Part shown: positions 1,155 to 55,174 of the stretch, piece by piece | Layout of the letters: every line of letters starts with the position of its first letter | How positions within the stretch are numbered: position 1 is the stretch's first letter | Assembly (NCBI GenBank): GCA_025934715.1 | Contig: JAICWR010000002.1 | Location: 152 to 64,151 of the forward strand | Length of the DNA stretch: 64,000 nt | Origin: Candidatus Saccharimonadota bacterium | GTDB taxonomy: Bacteria > Patescibacteriota > Saccharimonadia > Saccharimonadales > UBA10212 | Direction: 5' to 3' | Position numbers and translations under genes: made by a program | Notes under the pieces: generated by a model | Seen by the model: only the letters and a program-made list of their open reading frames with translations | Databases searched by the model: none | Told to the model about the DNA's origin: nothing

Positions 1155-1192
1155 CACCAGATTTCTCTGATGCGTTTTTGGTGGAGTTGGCG
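1155..1192 (+). terminator. Putative intrinsic terminator after the PhnB-like gene
   Basis: Imperfect hairpin (gcaccag ... ctgatgc) followed by GTTTTTGG directly after the stop at 1146. Confidence 0.4.
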
Positions 1193-1783
1193 GGAAATTC
1201 TCCCGCGTCCGCTCGGTAACAAATCCGATGACTACAGGCTTAGGCCGCTTGAAGTCTTTACCTAGCCATTAAAACGGCCGAAAAAAAACTAGGCGCAATC
1301 CAGGCAGTCTTAACCGGATTTTAGCGGATTACTAAACCCCGGGGCAGCCAAAAAATATGGCGCGCCCGCTCACTATTTGGCGTCGTAAGCGGCGCGGCTA
1401 GCGTGATTAAGCGCTAACTGTTGCGAAAGAATACGCCGGAGCAAAAAGGCTCGCGACAGCAGTTCTCACGCGATTAAATGCGTTTGCATTTAGTGGTTTG
1501 ATCCGGCTAACGTGCAGATCAACCCGGCCTGCCATGTGGATGTGTCAATGTCCAAACGTCGAAATAAATTCAACCCCTCGTCGCAACCTATGCGTCTGCC
1601 TCGTTTCGGCTAGTAAGCCAAAAGCTTCGGCTTGACGCTATGTTGCTCCTCTCAATTTCGCGTACGGCTGCTAGCACCCCGATGCGCAAAATTGGAAAGA
1701 AACCTAAGTTGCAAAGAGCGACCGAACTTTGAACTAATATAGATTATACCACTTGTGTTAACTTTCTGCAATAGAGTAAGGGG

Positions 1784-9567: not shown

Positions 9568-9615
9568 CCTTATAGTATTTACGCTTATTGTACACGAAAC
9601 CTGCTCGCTTAAGCA

Positions 9616-10926
9616 TCAGTTTTTATTCGCAAGAGCCTCAACTCCCGGTAGCTTATGCCCACTAATCAGCTCCAGCGTGGCGCCACCGCCAGTGGAGACG
9701 AAACCAAAGTCATCTGTCAATCGCTCGCCCTCCACGTAGCTCACGGTGTCCCCGCCGCCAACTAGCGTGAATGGCTTGCTAGCGTGTTTATTGCTGGCGC
9801 CTATCATGGCCTCGACTATGGTGTGGGTGCCGTGGGCGAACGGATCATGAGCGCCGGCAATGCCTCTCACTTCCGTGATACCGCAGGGCCCGTTCCAAAT
9901 TACCGTGCGAGCTAGCTTCACTGCGCCAGCGATCTGGGCGGCGCTGGCCGGCCCAATATCCAAAACCAGTTCATCTTTTTCCACTGTGTAAGCGCGGGGG
10001 CAGGGAATTTTAGGGTAAGCTTCTATATCTGAGGTGTTGCCGCCAAGCACGTCAACAATTCTGGTCGGGCCTGTGCCACCGATTTTTTCAGACACCACAG
10101 CATCAACCGGCACCAGGAAACTGAAGTTGCGTTTTTGTTCTTCGCTCTTAGCCAGAGCGAGGATTTCATGAGTGGTGCCCAGCGCCTCTTTTTCAACCTT
10201 GCTCTTGCCGATTTTCACACCCTCGGCCAGCAAAAAGTTATTGGCCATGGCGCCCACCACCGCCACGCAATCGGATAATTTAATAAGCTTGTTTAAAACC
10301 TCGATTTTATCGCTGACTTTAGCACCACCGACTATCGACACTAGCGGGCGTGCCGGCTCTTTGACGACCTTTTGAATCGTGGTGACTTCTTTTTCCAACA
10401 GCAACCCGGCGACAGACGGCAGCATTTTTGTTATGGCGTCAGTGGAGGCATGTGCCCGATGCACCACTCCAAAGCCGTCCTGCACGAACACGTCAGCCCC
10501 GCTAGTCTCCGCCAGTTCCTGGGCGAACTGTTTATCATTTTTCTCTTCCCGCGGGTCAAACCGCAGGTTCTCCAGCATAAGGATTTGCCCCGGCCCTAGT
10601 TTTTCGCAGGCTTGTTTGGCCTCCGCCCCAACCGTGCTTTCTACAAATTCCACCTTTTTATCGAGCAGTTCGGACAACCGTCTGGCCACCGGCTTTAGGC
10701 TGAACTCAGCGGACGGCTTGCCGTCCGGCCGGCCCAAATGGGAGACAATGACAATACTTGACTGGTATTGCTCCCAAATATATTGGATAGTCTGCACAGA
10801 TTGCTTAATACGGTAGTCATCAGAAATCTTGCCATCATCAACGGGCACATTATAATCAGCGCGGACAAGCACCCGCTTCCCTTTCAAATCCACATCTTTC
10901 ACGGTTTTTTTGTTGAATCCCACCAT
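9616..10926 (-). CDS. pgk: Phosphoglycerate kinase
   Basis: 'KGKRVLVRADYNVP', 'MLENLRFDPREE', 'GGGDT' motifs. Start placed at MVGFNKKT; the ORF-track start lies 16 codons upstream. Confidence 0.9.
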   Translation of the reverse strand: MVGFNKKTVKDVDLKGKRVLVRADYNVPVDDGKISDDYRIKQSVQTIQYIWEQYQSSIVIVSHLGRPDGKPSAEFSLKPVARRLSELLDKKVEFVESTVGAEAKQACEKLGPGQILMLENLRFDPREEKNDKQFAQELAETSGADVFVQDGFGVVHRAHASTDAITKMLPSVAGLLLEKEVTTIQKVVKEPARPLVSIVGGAKVSDKIEVLNKLIKLSDCVAVVGAMANNFLLAEGVKIGKSKVEKEALGTTHEILALAKSEEQKRNFSFLVPVDAVVSEKIGGTGPTRIVDVLGGNTSDIEAYPKIPCPRAYTVEKDELVLDIGPASAAQIAGAVKLARTVIWNGPCGITEVRGIAGAHDPFAHGTHTIVEAMIGASNKHASKPFTLVGGGDTVSYVEGERLTDDFGFVSTGGGATLELISGHKLPGVEALANKN

Positions 10927-11005: not shown

Positions 11006-11443
11006 TTACTCGAACACCCAGGTTGTGGACGAGACGATCGTATTTTTGCCGTTTTTGGGGTTACGTTCCCTGATTTGAAGCAATTGTGAGCCCGGCGATC
11101 CTGTTGAGATATCACCGGTCACGGTATTGATACAGCCTTTGCTGTCTGCCAGGCCCGCTCCCACGGCCCACTGGCCGATTCCGGTATCCGCAATCAAAGT
11201 TTCATTCGCGCCGGGAGTGTAGCCGCAGCCGGTTATGGTAAGGTGTACCGTTGTGGCGGCTGGGGCTGGATTAGGAGATACTTGCAGGGTAGCCGACGAA
11301 TGAGTGGAATTGTTTTTTGGCGCCGCACTGGCTATAATCGCAAAAATTCCCACGCCAGCAAAAATAGCTACGAACACTATCACTTGCCAAAGCTGGAAGG
11401 ATTGTTTCCTTTTCAAAAATTTTGTTTGTGTTTTCTTTGCCAT
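11006..11443 (-). CDS. Small secreted hypothetical protein
   Basis: N-terminal basic segment and TM/signal (LWQVIVFVAIFAGVGIFAIIASA), then a 100-aa domain with two Cys. Confidence 0.45.
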   Translation of the reverse strand: MAKKTQTKFLKRKQSFQLWQVIVFVAIFAGVGIFAIIASAAPKNNSTHSSATLQVSPNPAPAATTVHLTITGCGYTPGANETLIADTGIGQWAVGAGLADSKGCINTVTGDISTGSPGSQLLQIRERNPKNGKNTIVSSTTWVFE

Positions 11444-11874: not shown

Positions 11875-12231
11875 CTATATAGACTCTCTATCATCAAGAG
11901 CTTTTTGCATACTATCTATTATCTTTTCGGCCATCGTATTTCCTCGGCCAGGATGTCCGCCAAGGTATATTAAATCTCCTAGTTGTATGCTTTCAACCAC
12001 TTCATCATCACTCTTGCCATATCTGAAGGCAGCAGTAGCTATCTTACTGGCTTCAATAACGGATACCATGCCTAAAAACTCTATGACAAAAAACTTATTT
12101 AAATATGCTTCGCCGTATGCTCTGTTCACATCATCATCACTGGAAAGTAACTGCTCTATTTGCTCCATATCTTTATCATCCCAATCAAATTGAGGCAATG
12201 GGCCTTGGATAAGCTCAGGTTTATCTGACAT
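11875..12231 (-). CDS. Hypothetical acidic protein; upstream half of a TAG-interrupted reading frame
   Basis: 118-aa ORF with a 'GDLIYLGGHPGRGNTM' segment; no confident family assignment. Confidence 0.4.
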   Translation of the reverse strand: MSDKPELIQGPLPQFDWDDKDMEQIEQLLSSDDDVNRAYGEAYLNKFFVIEFLGMVSVIEASKIATAAFRYGKSDDEVVESIQLGDLIYLGGHPGRGNTMAEKIIDSMQKALDDRESI

Positions 12232-12251: not shown

Positions 12252-12761
12252 TTACGGCTCATTAGCACCACTACTCTCAATAGTAAATCTGGCCAGTAGC
12301 CTATCTCTATCAAATTGAGGTAAGGCAGACATAGTTTGAGCAAGGTCTTCAATATCAACGGAAGAGTCTCGCAGCGCGACGTACTCTTTTACGGATTGTT
12401 TAGTATTTTGAATCGTACGAGCAACTTCTATGTCTGCGGCTAGTGTATCTAAATCAAGAGGCGGCTTTTTAAAACTCAACTCGCCTAGACCGTAGTATTT
12501 CCAATGAGGTAAGAATCTAACTTGAATGCCTTCAAAGTCATATTCCATTGGTACGCCAATAGCGTAGTCGTTATCAATTATAAATGTTGGGGTAGCTTCG
12601 CTATCAAGAAGAAGTTTTAGAGTTACGAGGTTTCGTTCCCATAAGCCATGGTCTTTTATGTACGGTTTGTCTGAGTACCATGAAATGTCATCAAATCTTA
12701 AAGGAACCTTCGGTTGGCGTTCGTTAATCATACCTGAAATAGGATGTCTTTCCCTGGGCAT
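12252..12761 (-). CDS. Hypothetical protein
   Basis: 169-aa ORF immediately 3' of tRNA-Glu; no recognisable motif. Confidence 0.4.
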   Translation of the reverse strand: MPRERHPISGMINERQPKVPLRFDDISWYSDKPYIKDHGLWERNLVTLKLLLDSEATPTFIIDNDYAIGVPMEYDFEGIQVRFLPHWKYYGLGELSFKKPPLDLDTLAADIEVARTIQNTKQSVKEYVALRDSSVDIEDLAQTMSALPQFDRDRLLARFTIESSGANEP

Positions 12762-12808
12762 TAGTTAATTTTCTAATAATTACACCTGATGTGCAAGCAT
12801 GAGCGTAA

Positions 12809-12883
<75 letters not shown>

Positions 12884-12904
12884 AAAACAGAGGTATTTTA
12901 GCAG

Positions 12905-12968
12905 ACTTACCCCTGATACCAAAAATCCCCCGATGCTATCCTCACCATAGCAAACAGGGGATTTAAGG
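12905..12968 (-). terminator. Putative intrinsic terminator between structured element A and tRNA-Glu
   Basis: Minus strand reads AAATCCCC-TGTTT-GCTAT-GGTGAGG-ATAGC-ATC-GGGGATTT-TTGG: a two-tier hairpin with a T-run. Confidence 0.4.
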
Positions 12969-13089
12969 TTATATTCAAATTTTTGTTTTCGAGCGGTCAG
13001 TCACGATTGCTCTGTTGTCCATCTGTTACGCTAGCACAAATCAACGATTTGCACAAGCTTTATGCACAGGGAACTGACCGTTCTAGAAG

Positions 13090-13256
13090 CTAAAACTTTC
13101 CTGCTTGGATGAAGCGCCAGGAAGCGGCGAAGCACGCAGTGAGCTGTATTGTAATACAGCGACTGAGTACTGGAGCCGCTGACACAGCGATTAGCCAAGA
13201 GCGCTGGCGGGTTCCGGTTTAGCCGGAAACAGGCCAGCGCGCCAGGAAAGTTTTAG
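13090..13256 (-). ncRNA. Candidate structured RNA element, copy A (paralog of 15765..15929); strand tentative
   Basis: 14-bp terminal stem (ctaaaactttcctg / caggaaagttttag), inner stem agcggc/gccgct, hairpin gctgtat-tgta-atacagc, and a long 3' hairpin gcgctggc..gttccgg-tttag-ccggaac..gccagcgc. Core sequence is shared with copy B and the stems covary. Confidence 0.55.
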
Positions 13257-13258
13257 TC

Positions 13259-13933
13259 TTAGCGACGCTTGCGGGACACAACGTAGTGCCCAGCAGCGCC
13301 CAGGGAACTCACTCCGGTAAAGATACCCAGCACGTCACCCGCGCCGGTGTTCGGCAAAGTCTTCGTAGGTGTTGGGGTAGGTGTAGGTGTTGGAGTCGGT
13401 GTAGGAGTAGGAGTCGGGCAGCTAATCTTGGCTTTATAGTTCACGAACTCAGTCGTTGAACCATTAAGGCCGCCGATGTCTACGCCACTGGAAGTGATAG
13501 TATCGGGCAAAGTCTTGATGACATTACCTTTACCATCAAACAAAGTGGTTGTGCCGTTCTCGTAACTCACGGTCTGAGCAGAATCTATGTTTACAGTAGC
13601 GATTCCAGAAGTACCGGAAGTGCCACCGAGGTTGGTGGTAGCCGTCATTATAGAGGTATTAACGGTAGAGCTGCCACTGGGCAAGTTTACCTTAACCTTA
13701 ACATCGGTAAGACCACCAAACGAAATGTTGTGAAGCCGAATGCTGTACTCAACCTGTTCACAAGCGCTGGCGTTGGTTGACGGAGCATAACTACCGCCTT
13801 TAGTAACGTTCTTGACGTTATACACGATAGAACCGCCTTCAAGCTGGCCAGGGCTGTCGGCAATCGCCGGAGCGGCAATAGCAAACACAGGCAAAGCAGC
13901 CAAAACAATGGCTAATTTAGAAAATCGAATCAT
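13259..13933 (-). CDS. LPXTG cell-wall-anchored surface protein with a (Pro-Thr)9 linker
   Basis: Signal peptide (MIRFSKLAIVLAALPVFAIAAPAIA); C-terminal 'CPTPTPTPTPTPTPTPTKTLPNTGAGDVLGIFTGVSSLGAAGHYVVSRKRR' gives an LPNTG motif, hydrophobic span and basic tail. Confidence 0.8.
   Translation of the reverse strand: MIRFSKLAIVLAALPVFAIAAPAIADSPGQLEGGSIVYNVKNVTKGGSYAPSTNASACEQVEYSIRLHNISFGGLTDVKVKVNLPSGSSTVNTSIMTATTNLGGTSGTSGIATVNIDSAQTVSYENGTTTLFDGKGNVIKTLPDTITSSGVDIGGLNGSTTEFVNYKAKISCPTPTPTPTPTPTPTPTPTKTLPNTGAGDVLGIFTGVSSLGAAGHYVVSRKRR
13357..13420. repeat. Dinucleotide-codon tandem repeat encoding (PT)9
   Basis: ggtgtaggtgttggagtcggtgtaggagtaggagtcggg on the plus strand corresponds to a CCN-ACN repeat in the gene. 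Confidence 0.7.
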
Positions 13934-14015
13934 ATCAATTCTCCTTATCTAATCGAACTTAAATTACTTTACTTAACAAACTAGGTAGATACTGGACTTT
14001 AAATAGAGTGAAATC

Positions 14016-14052
14016 GACTACTGGCGCGCTATTAGCTGCTGCCAGTAGTCGT
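14016..14052 (-). terminator. Putative intrinsic terminator after the high-GC surface protein gene
   Basis: 11-bp stem cgactactggc / gccagtagtcg around a 15-nt loop, followed on the minus strand by ATTTCACTCTATTT. Confidence 0.45.
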
Positions 14053-14149
14053 TGGGGAGGCGGGCACCCGCTGGAATGCGGGTGCCCGTCCTATCCACGC
14101 CCCTCGGTCCCCCTTCATACTGAGGAGCGATCTGGAGGAGTGGCACCGA

Positions 14150-15499
14150 CTACGTGCTGTGGAGCTCCTTGCTGACTCCACTGGGGATGCTGGGGTTCGG
14201 CGGCGGCTGGACGACATCGATCGGCGTCGACGGGTCAGGGCTTTGCACCTCACCCGTGGTCAGGTCGACCACGTGGGCCGACACGGTGTCGGTGACCGGC
14301 TCCGTCGGAGCCGTGTATGTCACCTCGATGACCTGGTCGCTGCCGGTTGCAATCACCGTGAACGAGTTCGTCACGCTGAGCGTGCCGTAGTTCACGTGCA
14401 TTGTGATCTGCAAGGTATTCCCTGCCGGTGCCAGGCAGTGCAACTTGACCGGCGCCGTACTGATGTTGCCGGTCGAGAAGTCGCTGGTGTCGACCTCCTG
14501 AATCGTGTCGAAGTGACACGAAGGAGGCGGCGGGGGCGGCGTTTGGCGGTTTTTGAACTCCGCCTGTACGCCAGAGGACTCACAGGTGAACGTCTCAGGG
14601 TTATCCGACAGGATCTCCCAGCCATTCTTCGGGTTCTCGGTGATGATAACCGAGTCACCGACCTTGCAAGTCCCTGCGGACTGCGGGTTGCTGTCGAGGG
14701 GTACCGTCGTCGTCGTTCCTCCGGTCGTCACCTGGAAGGTGAACGTGCCTCCGGTCGGACAGGTTTCCTGCACGCCGGTGTCGTCCTCGCAGACCTTACC
14801 GATGGTAATCGGCGGCTTGGAGGGCGGCGGGGTCTGAGGAGGCGGAGGTGGGGACGGAGGCGGGATGGTCTTGGTCGTCTGATGGTGGACGTGCGTCACC
14901 TTCGTGATGCACTTGTGCCGAACGACCGCGAAGTTACCGCATTTGAACGGCACCTTCGTTTCGATGAAGCACGTCTTGGTCGTGATGGTGTCCACCCGGT
15001 CAAAGAACTCGGTCTTGCTGCCGTCGCTGTTCGTGACGGTCTTGACCAGCTTCGTCAGGCCATGCTTCACGGTCGTCTTCACGTTGATGACGACGCGTGA
15101 GCAGAATGCCGGGGCGCCATGGCGCTTGTAGCGCGGGTCGCGGAACGTGACGTTCCGGTCCACACTCGTGCCATTGATGCCGAAGCTCATCCGGATGAAG
15201 TGATCGCCGTAGCGAAGCACGCACTGACGGAAATTGCCCTCGCGCGTGGCCAGCACGAACTTCTTCCGTGCGGACTTGCTGAGCCCGGCGTACTTCATGG
15301 CCGTCGCGCCCTTGCGGGACGTGATCAGCTTGACGTAGCCGTGACGAGCGTTGCCGTGGTCGAATGCCGCCAGGCCGCCCGGGGTTACCGGGTCGCCGCC
15401 GAGGCGGGTCCAGCCGTTGCTCGCGAACGCGCTGTTCGAAAGCATCAAGATCGCCCCGACCACACTGGCCAGGACGAGAAGGAAGCGCTTTGCACGCAT
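14150..15499 (-). CDS. Secreted multi-domain surface protein with polyproline linkers; compositionally atypical (high GC)
   Basis: Start at MRAKRFLLVLASVVGAILMLSNSAFA (signal peptide) with an AGGAGA Shine-Dalgarno 6 nt upstream. PPPSPPPPPQTPPPS and TPPPPPPS linkers; Cys-containing modules; about 60-65% GC against a ~50% flank. The overlapping Arg-rich ORFs on both strands are GC artefacts. Confidence 0.7.
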   Translation of the reverse strand: MRAKRFLLVLASVVGAILMLSNSAFASNGWTRLGGDPVTPGGLAAFDHGNARHGYVKLITSRKGATAMKYAGLSKSARKKFVLATREGNFRQCVLRYGDHFIRMSFGINGTSVDRNVTFRDPRYKRHGAPAFCSRVVINVKTTVKHGLTKLVKTVTNSDGSKTEFFDRVDTITTKTCFIETKVPFKCGNFAVVRHKCITKVTHVHHQTTKTIPPPSPPPPPQTPPPSKPPITIGKVCEDDTGVQETCPTGGTFTFQVTTGGTTTTVPLDSNPQSAGTCKVGDSVIITENPKNGWEILSDNPETFTCESSGVQAEFKNRQTPPPPPPSCHFDTIQEVDTSDFSTGNISTAPVKLHCLAPAGNTLQITMHVNYGTLSVTNSFTVIATGSDQVIEVTYTAPTEPVTDTVSAHVVDLTTGEVQSPDPSTPIDVVQPPPNPSIPSGVSKELHST

Positions 15500-15530
15500 C
15501 TCTGCTCTCCTTTCGGTGATCGAGGACAAA

Positions 15531-15572
15531 GAAAACACCGCGTGGGTGATCAATTCCACGCGGTGTGCCGGC
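15531..15572 (-). terminator. Intrinsic terminator or attenuator hairpin about 30 nt upstream of the surface-protein start codon
   Basis: Minus strand CACCGCGTGG-GTGATCAATT-CCACGCGGTG followed by TTTTCTTTGTCC: a 10-bp GC-rich stem plus U-tract. Confidence 0.55.
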
Positions 15573-15586
15573 CGATACTGCTAGAC

Positions 15587-15628
15587 CGTGCGTCTTAGCG
15601 ACAAATAACTTATCGCTAAGACGCACGA
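15587..15628. promoter_or_regulatory. Perfect 15-bp inverted repeat (CGTGCGTCTTAGCGA-N11-TCGCTAAGACGCACG); candidate operator or hairpin
   Basis: Read directly from the sequence; lies between structured element B and the terminator hairpin. Confidence 0.5.
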
Positions 15629-15764
15629 TCCAACCGGGCGCACTAAAGCTCGCGTGGATAAATGTAGTAGTCGGAATGGGATTAAGGAGCCGCCTTATAA
15701 ATAAGTGGCTCGACTTAAAGCCCCATAACTACCTAGTTTGCTGTCTTAAATTTACAAAATTTAA

Positions 15765-15929
15765 CACACTTTCGTGCTTGGAAGCAGTGCAAGGAAGAAT
15801 CAAGCAACGCAAAGAGCTGTATTTGAATACAGTGATTGAGTAGCGGAGATTCTGACGAAGCAATGCGCCAAGAGCACTTTAACCAAGGCGAGCTTAGCTT
15901 GCCTTGTTAAAGTGCATCACGAACGTGTG
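15765..15929 (-). ncRNA. Candidate structured RNA element, copy B (paralog of 13090..13256); strand tentative
   Basis: Terminal stem cacactttcgtg / cacgaacgtgtg, inner stem agaatc/gattct, hairpin ctgtatt-tg-aatacag, and a 3' hairpin gcactttaac-caaggc..ttagc..gccttg-gttaaagtgc. Colinear with copy A, with compensatory changes. Confidence 0.55.
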
Positions 15930-16175
15930 TTGGACAACAAAAGGCTAAGCATTTTACTGCTTAGCTGTGACTGACTTGTTAAGTAACACCTCACCCGCCA
16001 CAGCTTCGGAAGAGTACTCATTGCCGCTCTACCTTAGAGGTTTCCCACCTCTCGCATGTGTTGCGAGGATGTCCATACTCTACCACAACAAGTCGCTAAT
16101 GTCAATACTCTATGCAATGAAAGTTAAATAAGGACAAGCACTATGGCCAACACTTTATTATAAAAACCCGTAGGG

Positions 16176-16415
16176 TTATTCGAGCTCTACGCCAACTATA
16201 ATCGCGGTAGGTGCGACCGCTTCCGCGCCTATAACTTCCCCGACCCGCTGTAGGCCTTCTTTAGCTAACAACATAGTGCTCTCCCGGCGAAGTTCCCCGG
16301 GCGATATCTGCTCAACTTCTACCCCTGGCAACCTAAATGCTTTAGCCAGTTGTTCTTCTTCACGTCTGGCTTTCTCAGGCCCAGCCGGGTCATATAGTGT
16401 GGAGATTTCTAACAT
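16176..16415 (-). CDS. Small hypothetical protein (79 aa)
   Basis: ORF 65 bp downstream of the sensor kinase; no recognisable motif; weak ribosome-binding site. Confidence 0.3.
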   Translation of the reverse strand: MLEISTLYDPAGPEKARREEEQLAKAFRLPGVEVEQISPGELRRESTMLLAKEGLQRVGEVIGAEAVAPTAIIVGVELE

Positions 16416-21520: not shown

Positions 21521-21925
21521 GTGGTTAAGATCGCGATTATTGAGGATGAGGCGGCCATTGCCGCGATGTATGAGACCGAGCTGCAGAACGCCGGCTTTGA
21601 GGTTGGCGTGGCCAGCAATGGCAAACTTGGTTTAGAGCTCTGCGAGAAACTCAAGCCAGATTTGGTTTTGCTTGACATCATGATGCCAGAGATGGACGGC
21701 AAGCAAATGCTTGAGAAAATGCGGACGACCGAATGGGGCAAGCATACCCTTGTGATTGTCCTAACCAACCTGGGCCAGCACGAAGCCCAGATGAGCATGG
21801 GCGACAACAAGTTTGACGGCTACGCCGTCAAAGCGTATTACACGCCCAAGCAAATCCGTGACCGCGTGGTTGAGCTGCTCAAGGAGAATGACAAGCTGCC
21901 CAAAGAGTGGACGCCTAAATCCTAA
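21521..21925 (+). CDS. Single-domain response regulator (CheY-like receiver)
   Basis: Receiver motifs: 'IAIIEDE', 'PDLVLLDIMMPEMDG', 'VIVLTN', 'DGYAVKAY'. Confidence 0.8.
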   Translation: MVKIAIIEDEAAIAAMYETELQNAGFEVGVASNGKLGLELCEKLKPDLVLLDIMMPEMDGKQMLEKMRTTEWGKHTLVIVLTNLGQHEAQMSMGDNKFDGYAVKAYYTPKQIRDRVVELLKENDKLPKEWTPKS

Positions 21926-21943: not shown

Positions 21944-22315
21944 ATGGCCAAGATAGCGATCGTAGAAGATGATCTGGCAATTGCCCAGATGTACCGCCTT
22001 AAATTCGAGGCGCTGGGCCACCATGTGGAAATCGCCGAAAATGGCAAGCTGGGATTAGAGCTTTGCGAGAGGCTCAAGCCCGATTTGCTGCTACTTGACC
22101 TGATGATGCCGGAGATGAACGGCGATGAGATGCTGGAGAAAATGCGGGCTACGGAGTGGGGCAAAGGCATCAAGGTTATTATTCTAACCAATGTCGGCGA
22201 GCAAGAAGCACCGGAAAAACTCAAATCCCTGCACGTGCGCGATTACATCGTAAAGGCCGAAATGACACCCTCCCAAGTTGCGGAGGTCGCCAAAAAAGAA
22301 CTCGAAGCCGCCTAA
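21944..22315 (+). CDS. Single-domain response regulator (CheY-like receiver), tandem paralog
   Basis: 'IAIVEDD', 'PDLLLLDLMMPEMNG', 'VIILTN', 'DYIVKA'; about 55% identical to the preceding gene. Confidence 0.8.
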   Translation: MAKIAIVEDDLAIAQMYRLKFEALGHHVEIAENGKLGLELCERLKPDLLLLDLMMPEMNGDEMLEKMRATEWGKGIKVIILTNVGEQEAPEKLKSLHVRDYIVKAEMTPSQVAEVAKKELEAA

Positions 22316-55085: not shown

Positions 55086-55174
55086 GCCGGCCTGACGGCT
55101 AAGAACTCCCCTGCCAGTGCTCGCCAGGGGAGTTCTTATTAGGCCGGACCTGAGTTACTATTAACATAAGCCTT

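Follow-up and report, generated by a model that had tools for sequence, protein, structure and literature searches.

RNase III processes the mRNA leaders of Escherichia coli rnc and pnp, of phage lambda N, and of the T7 early mRNAs, while ompA and Lactobacillus slpA, which give abundant envelope and S-layer mRNAs, carry stabilizer stem-loops in the 5′ leader, right where the primary transcript starts. In a further known arrangement, the toxin mRNA hok folds back 5′ to 3′ on itself. Here, we describe a leader that shares features with each of these, found in 64,000 nucleotides of a Candidatus Saccharimonadota bacterium (contig JAICWR010000002.1; the whole stretch is referred to below as the window). 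The leader lies on the minus strand ahead of a two-gene operon encoding a secreted protein (gene 1) and an LPXTG-anchored protein (gene 2), and a first-pass annotation made from the letters of the window had drawn attention to a palindrome and a GC-rich hairpin, here called H1 and H2, that stand just before gene 1 and follow a folded element, B. We find that H1 and H2 are conserved RNA stem-loops. We conclude, at a probability of roughly 0.6, that they are the promoter-distal modules of a folded leader of ~570 nt that is conserved with its operon in Saccharimonadales, and that their most likely role is processing and stabilization of the mRNA. Coordinates are those of the window, and features of the locus are on its minus strand.

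Like the RNase III-processed leaders, the locus has a 5′-untranslated region with long hairpins that are nearly perfect and span some two helical turns (H1 is mostly 20–26 bp); unlike them it has two duplexes, the local H1 and a long-range duplex between two arms, L and R, both predicted from sequence. With ompA and slpA it shares a stable 5′-untranslated hairpin, a secreted or surface gene, and a strong promoter, H2 being held at a fixed short distance from the ribosome-binding site, but H2 would reach a 5′ end only after processing. As in hok, sequence in the 5′ leader pairs with sequence behind the ORF, although the context there (a toxin mRNA), the length, and the partners are different. 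Finally, like an rRNA operon leader, it has a strong promoter, a candidate boxA-like motif UGYUACUU(U)AACAA in the leader, and complementary strands ~1.4–2.3 kb apart that enclose the product, with a stalk core, AAACUAGGUAGU, identical to that of one Saccharibacterial 16S stalk. It differs in that the enclosed product is a protein gene with its own ribosome-binding site and three hairpins (H0 to H2), and in that one group of leaders, subtype II, carries another arm sequence, GGAUCAUGAGAG.

The palindrome and the GC hairpin are conserved RNA structures in a cis-acting leader

The core of H1 is a perfect 15-bp inverted repeat (15627..15587) with arms CGTGCGTCTTAGCGA (15627..15613) and TCGCTAAGACGCACG (15601..15587) around the 11-nt loop TAAGTTATTTG; RNAfold lengthens it to a 25-bp stem capped by an AU-rich 5-nt loop (15634..15580). 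H2 is an 11-bp stem with a 10-nt loop (15566..15535), composed of the 5′ arm (A)CACCGCGTGG at 15566..15556, the loop AATTGATCAC, and the 3′ arm CCACGCGGTG(U) at 15545..15535, and the U-tract UUUUCUUU lies directly 3′ of it (15535..15528). Written through from 15566 to 15528, hairpin and tail read (A)CACCGCGTGG, AATTGATCAC, CCACGCGGTG(U), TTTTCTTT. The sequence GUCCUCGAUCACCGAAAGGAGAGCAGAG then leads from the tail to the ATG at 15499, with the Shine–Dalgarno (SD) sequence GGAGAG at 15510..15505. Both structures that the first-pass annotation reported are therefore real, the palindrome being one base shorter than the 15587–15628 given there and the hairpin with its U-tract being displaced by 3–7 nt from 15531–15572. 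The relative placement also stands with adjusted distances: the palindrome follows element B by 131 nt (not ~140), and H2 ends 36 nt (not ~30) before the ATG.

Structures of this kind are rare in the window. Only two perfect inverted repeats of at least 12 bp with a loop of 3–20 nt occur in the 64 kb, and none was found in 20 dinucleotide shuffles. For the 149 nt preceding the ATG, the predicted folding energy is −78.2 kcal/mol (z = −8.5), a stability reached by 0 of 200 shuffles.

The relatives used for comparison comprise three syntenic genomes (L009, L010, and L011) and 38 metagenome loci retrieved by the promoter/5′-end pattern TTGACA-N11-TTGTGGTA-N9-CATCCTC. The leaders of the three genomes share the promoter and the first transcript bases with the window, and their gene order is LPG-synthase-C, kinase, long leader, a 409–460-aa protein without a Pfam match, a second protein, and PGK; for the adjoining histidine kinase, the annotation of orthologues is to Saccharibacteria or Saccharimonadales. 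At about 25 of the 38 metagenome loci, an ORF with a signal peptide starts 316–526 nt after the −35 box. Across ~20 distinct leaders, H1 (20–26 bp in most) and H2 (9–14 bp, GC) precede the signal-peptide ORF at the same position, so that the last 150 nt consist of H1, then H2, then a small hairpin around the SD. The loop of H1 is AU-rich across loci (e.g., GAUAAUUUAUUUUGUC), and H2 is a perfect 9- to 14-bp GC hairpin ending 23–39 nt ahead of the start codon in 17 of 17 leaders measured.

The stem sequences of H1 and H2 are unrelated between loci while the pairing persists. We scored covariation of H1 on a MAFFT alignment of 17 leaders (20 H1 pairs, 500 column shuffles) and found that pairs were formed in 91.2% of cells, compared to 69.7% after column shuffling, with 0 of 500 shuffles reaching the observed value; when the partner was slid by 1–3 columns as a control, at most 47% of cells were paired. 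Both partners have changed in 17 of the 20 pairs. MAFFT placed H2 poorly, with the window and L041 misaligned, and only six H2 pairs could be scored, all six of which carry compensatory changes; structure-anchored counts were added. For these, stems were located by a scoring that penalizes every mismatch type equally, and G.T mismatches outnumbered A.C by 46 to 11 in H1 and by 4 to 0 in H2, counts that overstate the number of independent events owing to kinship among the loci. The excess of G.T indicates RNA made from the gene strand rather than a double-stranded DNA site. H1 and H2 are thus stem-loops of RNA, conserved as parts of a leader that acts in cis. The first-pass proposal of such a leader is borne out further by the single promoter upstream, by the lack of room for any promoter between the hairpin and the ribosome-binding site, and by the recurrence of the H1/H2 pair at a matching distance from the start codon in the ~20 related leaders.

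The leader begins with one promoter and a conserved 5′ domain

Between 17000 and 12950 on the minus strand, the only σ70-like promoter is at 16105..16077 (TTGACA, a 17-nt spacer, and the extended −10 element TGg-TAGAGT; 10/12 matches plus the TG in our scan), and the transcript probably starts near 16070. From the promoter the order is 5′ domain, U-tailed hairpin (T1), element B, H0, H1, H2, and the gene. Taken as a whole, the leader of 574 nt has a folding z-score of −10.2.

An alignment of 27 leaders delimits the 5′ domain (15966..16071). Its closing helix, CAUCCUCGC : GUGAGG, has pairs kept in 25–27 of the 27 leaders, and further pairs covary; promoter and domain together are 80–90% alike among loci, while the inner hairpins of the domain vary in length. 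The domain could bind a protein or a ligand. At its end is a motif resembling the boxA of rRNA operons, UGUUACUUAACAA at 15988..15976, which in L009 and L024 takes the form UGCUACUUUAACAA. The E. coli rrn boxA-spacer is ugcucuuuaacaauuua (PMC2724277). Compared to the E. coli rrn sequence ugcucuuuaacaa, the likeness of the window, L009, and L024 motifs extends over 9–13 nt with a 1-nt indel.

Two hairpins lie between the 5′ domain and H1, on either side of element B. The terminator scan called T1 (15931..15965), which consists of GCUAAGCA/UGCUUAGC followed by CCUUUUGUUGUCC, and its stem covaries in L011, L022, L029, L042, L044, L045, and L047. We considered T1 (15965..15944) as the terminator of a 125-nt small RNA (sRNA) and rejected this, the U-run being one strand of a conserved helix near the L arm: in the whole-leader minimum free energy (MFE) structure, it pairs with GACAGCAAA, directly 5′ of the L arm, to form a bridging helix with strands UUUGUUGUC and GACAGCAAA. 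H0 (15667..15732, from the MFE structure) is a local hairpin between the 3′ portion of the L arm and UUAAUCCCAU..CGACUAC, and hairpins with differing stem sequences occupy this place in L011, L015, L018, L028, L045, and L047. A search of Rfam 15 over 12700–16300 at E ≤ 10 returned only tRNA-Glu and noise, leaving the leader and elements A and B (A being a second copy of B, described below) unmatched at this threshold and at the gathering threshold, and the related loci gave no family match at either.

H2 is not conserved as a terminator

An alternative reading, and one that we consider unlikely although it retains an appreciable share of our credence, is that H2 and its U-tract form a working intrinsic terminator in the genome of the window, such that the leader attenuates and gene 1 is on only upon signal-triggered read-through. 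As in a Rho-independent terminator or attenuator, the window has an 11-bp GC-rich stem directly before UUUUCUUU and just upstream of the gene. No promoter lies between H2 and the gene, the upstream boxA-like motif could give regulated or processive read-through, and a U-rich tail is retained in the closest cassette relative, L041, which shares UUUUCUU(U)GUCCUCGAUCACCGAAAGGAG with the window. Beyond these two leaders, however, the U-tract is represented only by four U's in L036, and 14 of the 17 leaders with H2 do not have it. The loop of 10 nt exceeds the ~3–8 nt of a typical terminator, and the terminator scan did not call H2. We also looked upstream for an anti-terminator partner of the H2 5′ arm in 15 loci and found pairing no better than for shuffled arms (the window ranked 58 of 200, and the 15 loci had evenly spread ranks); a conserved alternative pairing of the kind an attenuator has is thus not seen. 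Another possible partner of the U-rich tract is the SD/AUG region. Within 15497..15535, which comprises the U/C-rich tract UUUUCUUUGUCCUC, the linker GAUCACC, the SD GGAGAG, and the AUG, the MFE structure shows that the tract can form pairs with GAG-GCAGAGA around both SD and AUG, and in L041 this pairing is kept by a compensating indel. Because the U-tract is confined to the window and one relative, H2 has some conserved role other than termination, and the attenuator that the first-pass annotation offered as part of one of its two options is not supported as the conserved function of H2.

We considered a role for the small hairpin around the SD (H3) in sequestering the SD and dropped it. The SD pairing probability over 20 leaders was 0.69, compared to 0.78 with the upstream sequence shuffled, and because pairing is below the shuffled controls, we do not claim translational masking.

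A long-range inverted repeat brackets H1, H2, and gene 1

The L arm, CAAACUAGGUAGUUAUGGGGCUUUAAGUCGAG with core AAACUAGGUAGU (15709..15740), is complementary to the R arm (13977..14008), which lies just behind gene 1; over 32 nt, the two form 26 Watson–Crick pairs, 3 G.U pairs, and 3 mismatches. The arms bracket H1, H2, and gene 1. This bracket occurs in 18 distinct loci and in both leader subtypes, with a duplex of 16–32 bp, and the L:R pairs summed over the 18 loci comprise 392 Watson–Crick, 16 G.T, 2 A.C, and 19 mismatches of other kinds. Wherever a subtype I leader was covered by enough sequence, it contained GCAAACUAGRUAGUUAUGGGNCUUUAA, recurring inverted just behind gene 1. Subtype II leaders have AACAAGUCGGAUCAUGAGAG in the equivalent bracket role, their arm sequence differing from that of subtype I as noted above. 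There are accordingly two types of arm sequence, AACTAGRTAG and GGATCATGAGA, of which the first (type I) matches the core of a 16S stalk.

For comparison with rRNA processing stalks, we obtained a locus with a complete 16S gene and both flanks (L051) through gyrA neighbours. In its 16S processing stalk, UUGAAAACUGAGUAGUGCAAAUCAACGUCA (12058–12088) pairs with UGACGUUUGAUCUGCACUACCCAGUUUUCAA (14001–14031). The 16S leader of L005 contains GAAAACUAGGUAGUGCAAAUCAACGUCA, and over 12 nt the L-arm core does not differ from the L005 stalk, in whose outer part the match lies; it is also close to the L051 stalk. Between the two rRNA stalks (L005 and L051) and five L arms, 14 columns are invariant, and among the 51 fetched loci, a degenerate form of the stalk 12-mer occurs only in the rRNA stalks and in one L arm. 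The 16S flanks of L050 were left out as low-complexity; in this locus (9604–9639 and 11134–11380), only 35 nt separate gyrA from the start of the 16S gene and the 3′ flank consists of low-complexity A/T runs, which is probably an assembly artefact. The bracket around H1, H2, and gene 1 thus resembles a 16S stalk, and we treat the resemblances to rRNA operons as leads, not as proof of common machinery.

The same arms could be read as DNA. In Clostridioides difficile cwpV-type switches, ~150–200 bp of leader inverts, and here too inverted repeats stand between a fixed promoter and a surface gene whose leader has terminator-like structures. The arms would then be recombinase sites and the segment of H1, H2, and gene 1 would be invertible, giving ON/OFF phase variation of a surface protein with the hairpins as cargo. 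We judge this improbable. The sequence of the arms is itself conserved, and in 18 loci the arms bracket the gene but not the promoter; the core AACTA-GR-TAGTT is a small palindrome; the two arms carry an identical change in the window (GG) and again in L040; and the bracketed segment is hypervariable and GC-rich in 21 of 21 loci, as would be seen in a recombination hot spot. Yet the recognizable signal-peptide ORFs (~24 loci) are all in the sense orientation, as are 6 of 6 tblastn matches to the N-terminal domain of gene 1, window included, and we saw no enclosed segment in the inverted orientation among the fetched loci. (The length of ORFs is uninformative on this point because high GC creates long antisense frames.) The mismatches within the arms show an RNA-like asymmetry (G.T 16 and A.C 2), the arm core equals an rRNA processing stalk, and the arms sit inside local RNA hairpins. 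None of the seven neighbouring ORFs matched a recombinase family in NCBIfam, nor did any of the four that were also compared to Pfam. Moreover, the repeats here enclose the whole gene, unlike those of the cwpV-type switches.

Element B is a lineage-specific insertion

Elements A and B are copies, 74% identical, of a structured element of 160–180 nt that we call R1, and 15 of 50 predicted pairs differ between them on both sides (compensatory changes). Element B (15758..15935; covariance model match of 203 bits) lies in the loop of the bridging helix, whereas element A (13085..13262, found with the same model) lies at the 3′ end of the operon, a position kept in relatives; the R1 model matched only these two sites within the window. 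R1 follows gene 2 in L011, L014, L020, L027, L028, L040, and the window (element A), and an additional R1 inside the leader occurs only in the window and L034. The closest relatives, L022, L047, and L011, do not have B in their leaders and go directly from ...UUGUUGUCC to ...AGCAAACUAG. Element B is therefore a lineage-specific insertion outside the conserved leader unit, and the first-pass suggestion that it forms part of a regulatory leader together with H1 and H2 finds no support in these close relatives.

R1 in general is rod-like, 100–180 nt long, and absent from Rfam, with a highly conserved apex (CUCA-N4-CUGUAUU-NN-AAUACAGCUCA). A scan of a genome collection found the R1 core in metagenome-assembled genomes of Saccharimonadales, Falkowbacteria, and other Patescibacteria, mostly right behind a stop codon. 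Further copies are present at L001 2095–2276, L002 6790–6884, L004 7204–7300, L005 2655–2835, L006 6835–7038 (two in tandem), and L011 8226–8404 and 12418–12562. The L005 copy lies antisense within the 16S rRNA leader, between the stalk strand and the 16S 5′ end, from which we gather that R1 inserts into highly transcribed leaders in either orientation.

The other option of the first-pass annotation was that B, the palindrome, and the hairpin make up an independent, terminated sRNA of 350–400 nt ending at H2. Element B is indeed a well-folded RNA element, and H2 with its U-tract could end a transcript. Nevertheless, H0, H1, and H2 persist in relatives without B, no hairpins of this kind come after the other R1 copies, the position of H1 and H2 tracks the start codon of gene 1 and not B, and the only promoter-like site ahead of B is the leader promoter. 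Because relatives keep the leader without B and R1 normally follows gene 2, B being one dispersed copy of it, we give an sRNA ending at H2 very little credence. Least credible of all is the proposal that the 15-bp palindrome is a DNA site for a dimeric transcription factor, for despite its perfect dyad symmetry and position upstream of the gene, it lies ~440 nt downstream of the sole promoter, its stems of 20–26 bp are much longer than operator half-sites, the orthologous hairpins have retained pairing without any common half-site sequence, and their mismatches are strand-asymmetric, with G.T far above A.C (46 and 11).

The bracketed segment is a GC-rich cassette of variable content

Gene 1 (14150..15499) encodes a 449-aa secreted protein with a signal peptide and has a GC content of 60–65%, compared to ~45% in the flanks. 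The protein matched no family in Pfam or NCBIfam. Its AlphaFold2 model (pLDDT 80) has a helical/beta N-domain followed by Ig-like beta-sandwiches, and Foldseek against the PDB returned weak multi-domain matches to the S-layer protein SbsB, Bacillus anthracis TIE, RbmA, and pilus backbones. The description of gene 1 as a high-GC surface-protein gene thus agrees with the data as to GC content and signal peptide, and a surface role is suggested by the signal peptide, the modelled Ig-like domains with their weak fold matches, and the LPXTG neighbour.

An 11-bp GC hairpin without a U-tract (14061..14088) lies 61 nt past the gene 1 stop, inside the bracket, and may be a 3′ protective structure. Gene 2 (13259..13933) encodes a 224-aa protein assigned as LPXTG-anchored by motif and family score, with LPNTG, a hydrophobic tail, and a basic RKRR end (TIGR01167, 16.6 bits against a cut-off of 15.9). 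Downstream of the operon are a terminator-like hairpin, AAAUCCCC...GGGGAUUU followed by UU, at 12921..12964 and a tRNA-Glu gene at 12883..12809. The first-pass annotation had placed this hairpin, between element A and tRNA-Glu, at the wider limits 12905–12968.

The bracketed segment (14009–15708 in the window) has a GC content of 58–64% in 21 of 21 loci, with most flanks at 44–55%. Recent horizontal transfer of a high-GC gene was considered and rejected, as this GC content is found in all 21 loci and gene 1 is syntenic; since the segment is GC-rich whatever the GC content of the flanks, we regard it as a trait of the cassette. The N-terminal domain of gene 1 is found only in L009, L010, L020, L024, and L025 besides the window, and in different strains the segment encodes non-homologous secreted proteins. 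This suggests that the bracketed segment is an exchangeable cassette or a recombination hot spot.

Elsewhere in the window, the second perfect inverted repeat (55100–55138; 14 bp, 11-nt loop) lies between a 155-aa ORF and a gene with a type IV pilin-like start (MKTNRQSGFTVVELVV) and is probably an intercistronic hairpin or a terminator, with no clear U-tract. Two direct 170-nt copies of 76% identity (21617–21786 and 22040–22209) lie 423 nt apart. The window also contains a tmRNA gene (1179–1577, minus strand, 93.5 bits) and nine scattered tRNA genes, among them the tRNA-Glu directly downstream of the operon.

Discussion

On the reading that we favour, a processed and stabilized leader mRNA, transcription would run from the promoter at 16105..16077 through the 5′ domain with its boxA-like motif, element B, H0, H1, and H2 to the ribosome-binding site. 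The boxA-like motif may guard the long untranslated leader against premature termination. In the primary transcript, the L arm could then pair with its complement behind gene 1, so that a duplex of 16–32 bp with a 16S-stalk-like core would enclose H1, H2, and gene 1. We infer that a factor specific for double strands acts on this duplex and on the 20- to 26-bp H1, by cutting or by binding; a candidate is RNase III, whose substrates have ~20 bp or more of mostly Watson–Crick helix; H1 has 25 bp in the window and L:R has 16–32 bp. Cutting would trim the leader, leaving the mRNA of gene 1 detached both from the 5′ domain and from the mRNA of gene 2. H2 would then be near a new 5′ end, 23–39 nt from the start codon, where it could protect the mRNA, and it may also insulate the ribosome-binding site from the long leader.

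Several observations weigh against this reading. The match between the arms and the rRNA stalks is just 12–14 nt long and comes from other Saccharibacterial genomes than that of the window. The arms are conserved in sequence as well as in pairing, which would also fit recognition by a protein or a recombinase site. Within the window, H2 has the form of a terminator, a GC-rich 11-bp stem followed by UUUUCUUU, and the kinship among loci noted above tempers the wobble counts. The reading of a processing or stabilizing leader draws instead on the covariation and strandedness of H1 and H2, on their constant position before the start codon, and on the bracket with its likeness to rRNA signals, and cleavage, stabilization, and antitermination are the steps that these observations suggest.

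The kinds of components are already known, namely stabilizer hairpins, RNase III stems, boxA, and processing stalks. We found no description in Rfam or in the literature searched of this leader, or of such a combination around a protein-coding, hypervariable, GC-rich cassette, and the combination therefore appears to be new. Tentatively, and with more doubt than confidence, we postulate that the chromosome of Saccharimonadales has a single expression site with the design of an rRNA operon, comprising a consensus promoter, boxA-like signal, and stalk-like duplex, into which interchangeable, unusually GC-rich (58–64%) secreted-protein genes are slotted together with H1 and H2; strains would then have a conserved frame in common but carry non-homologous content in it.

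For annotation, it follows that U-tract hairpins in such leaders should not be named terminators or sRNA ends from their shape alone. Almost nothing is known of the control of gene expression in Saccharibacteria, and the phylum has very few described regulatory RNAs. A conserved structured leader of 300–570 nt, outside Rfam and standing before a hypervariable secreted-protein gene, provides testable elements for processing, stability, and antitermination. If the resemblance to rRNA signals is functional, a protein-coding gene would here be making use of the signals of an rRNA operon, which is unusual. Saccharibacteria attach to other bacteria, and their surface proteins decide contact with the host; an expression site of the kind postulated here, if it is real, would let a major surface antigen be expressed and exchanged in a novel manner, through the transcription and processing machinery of rRNA.

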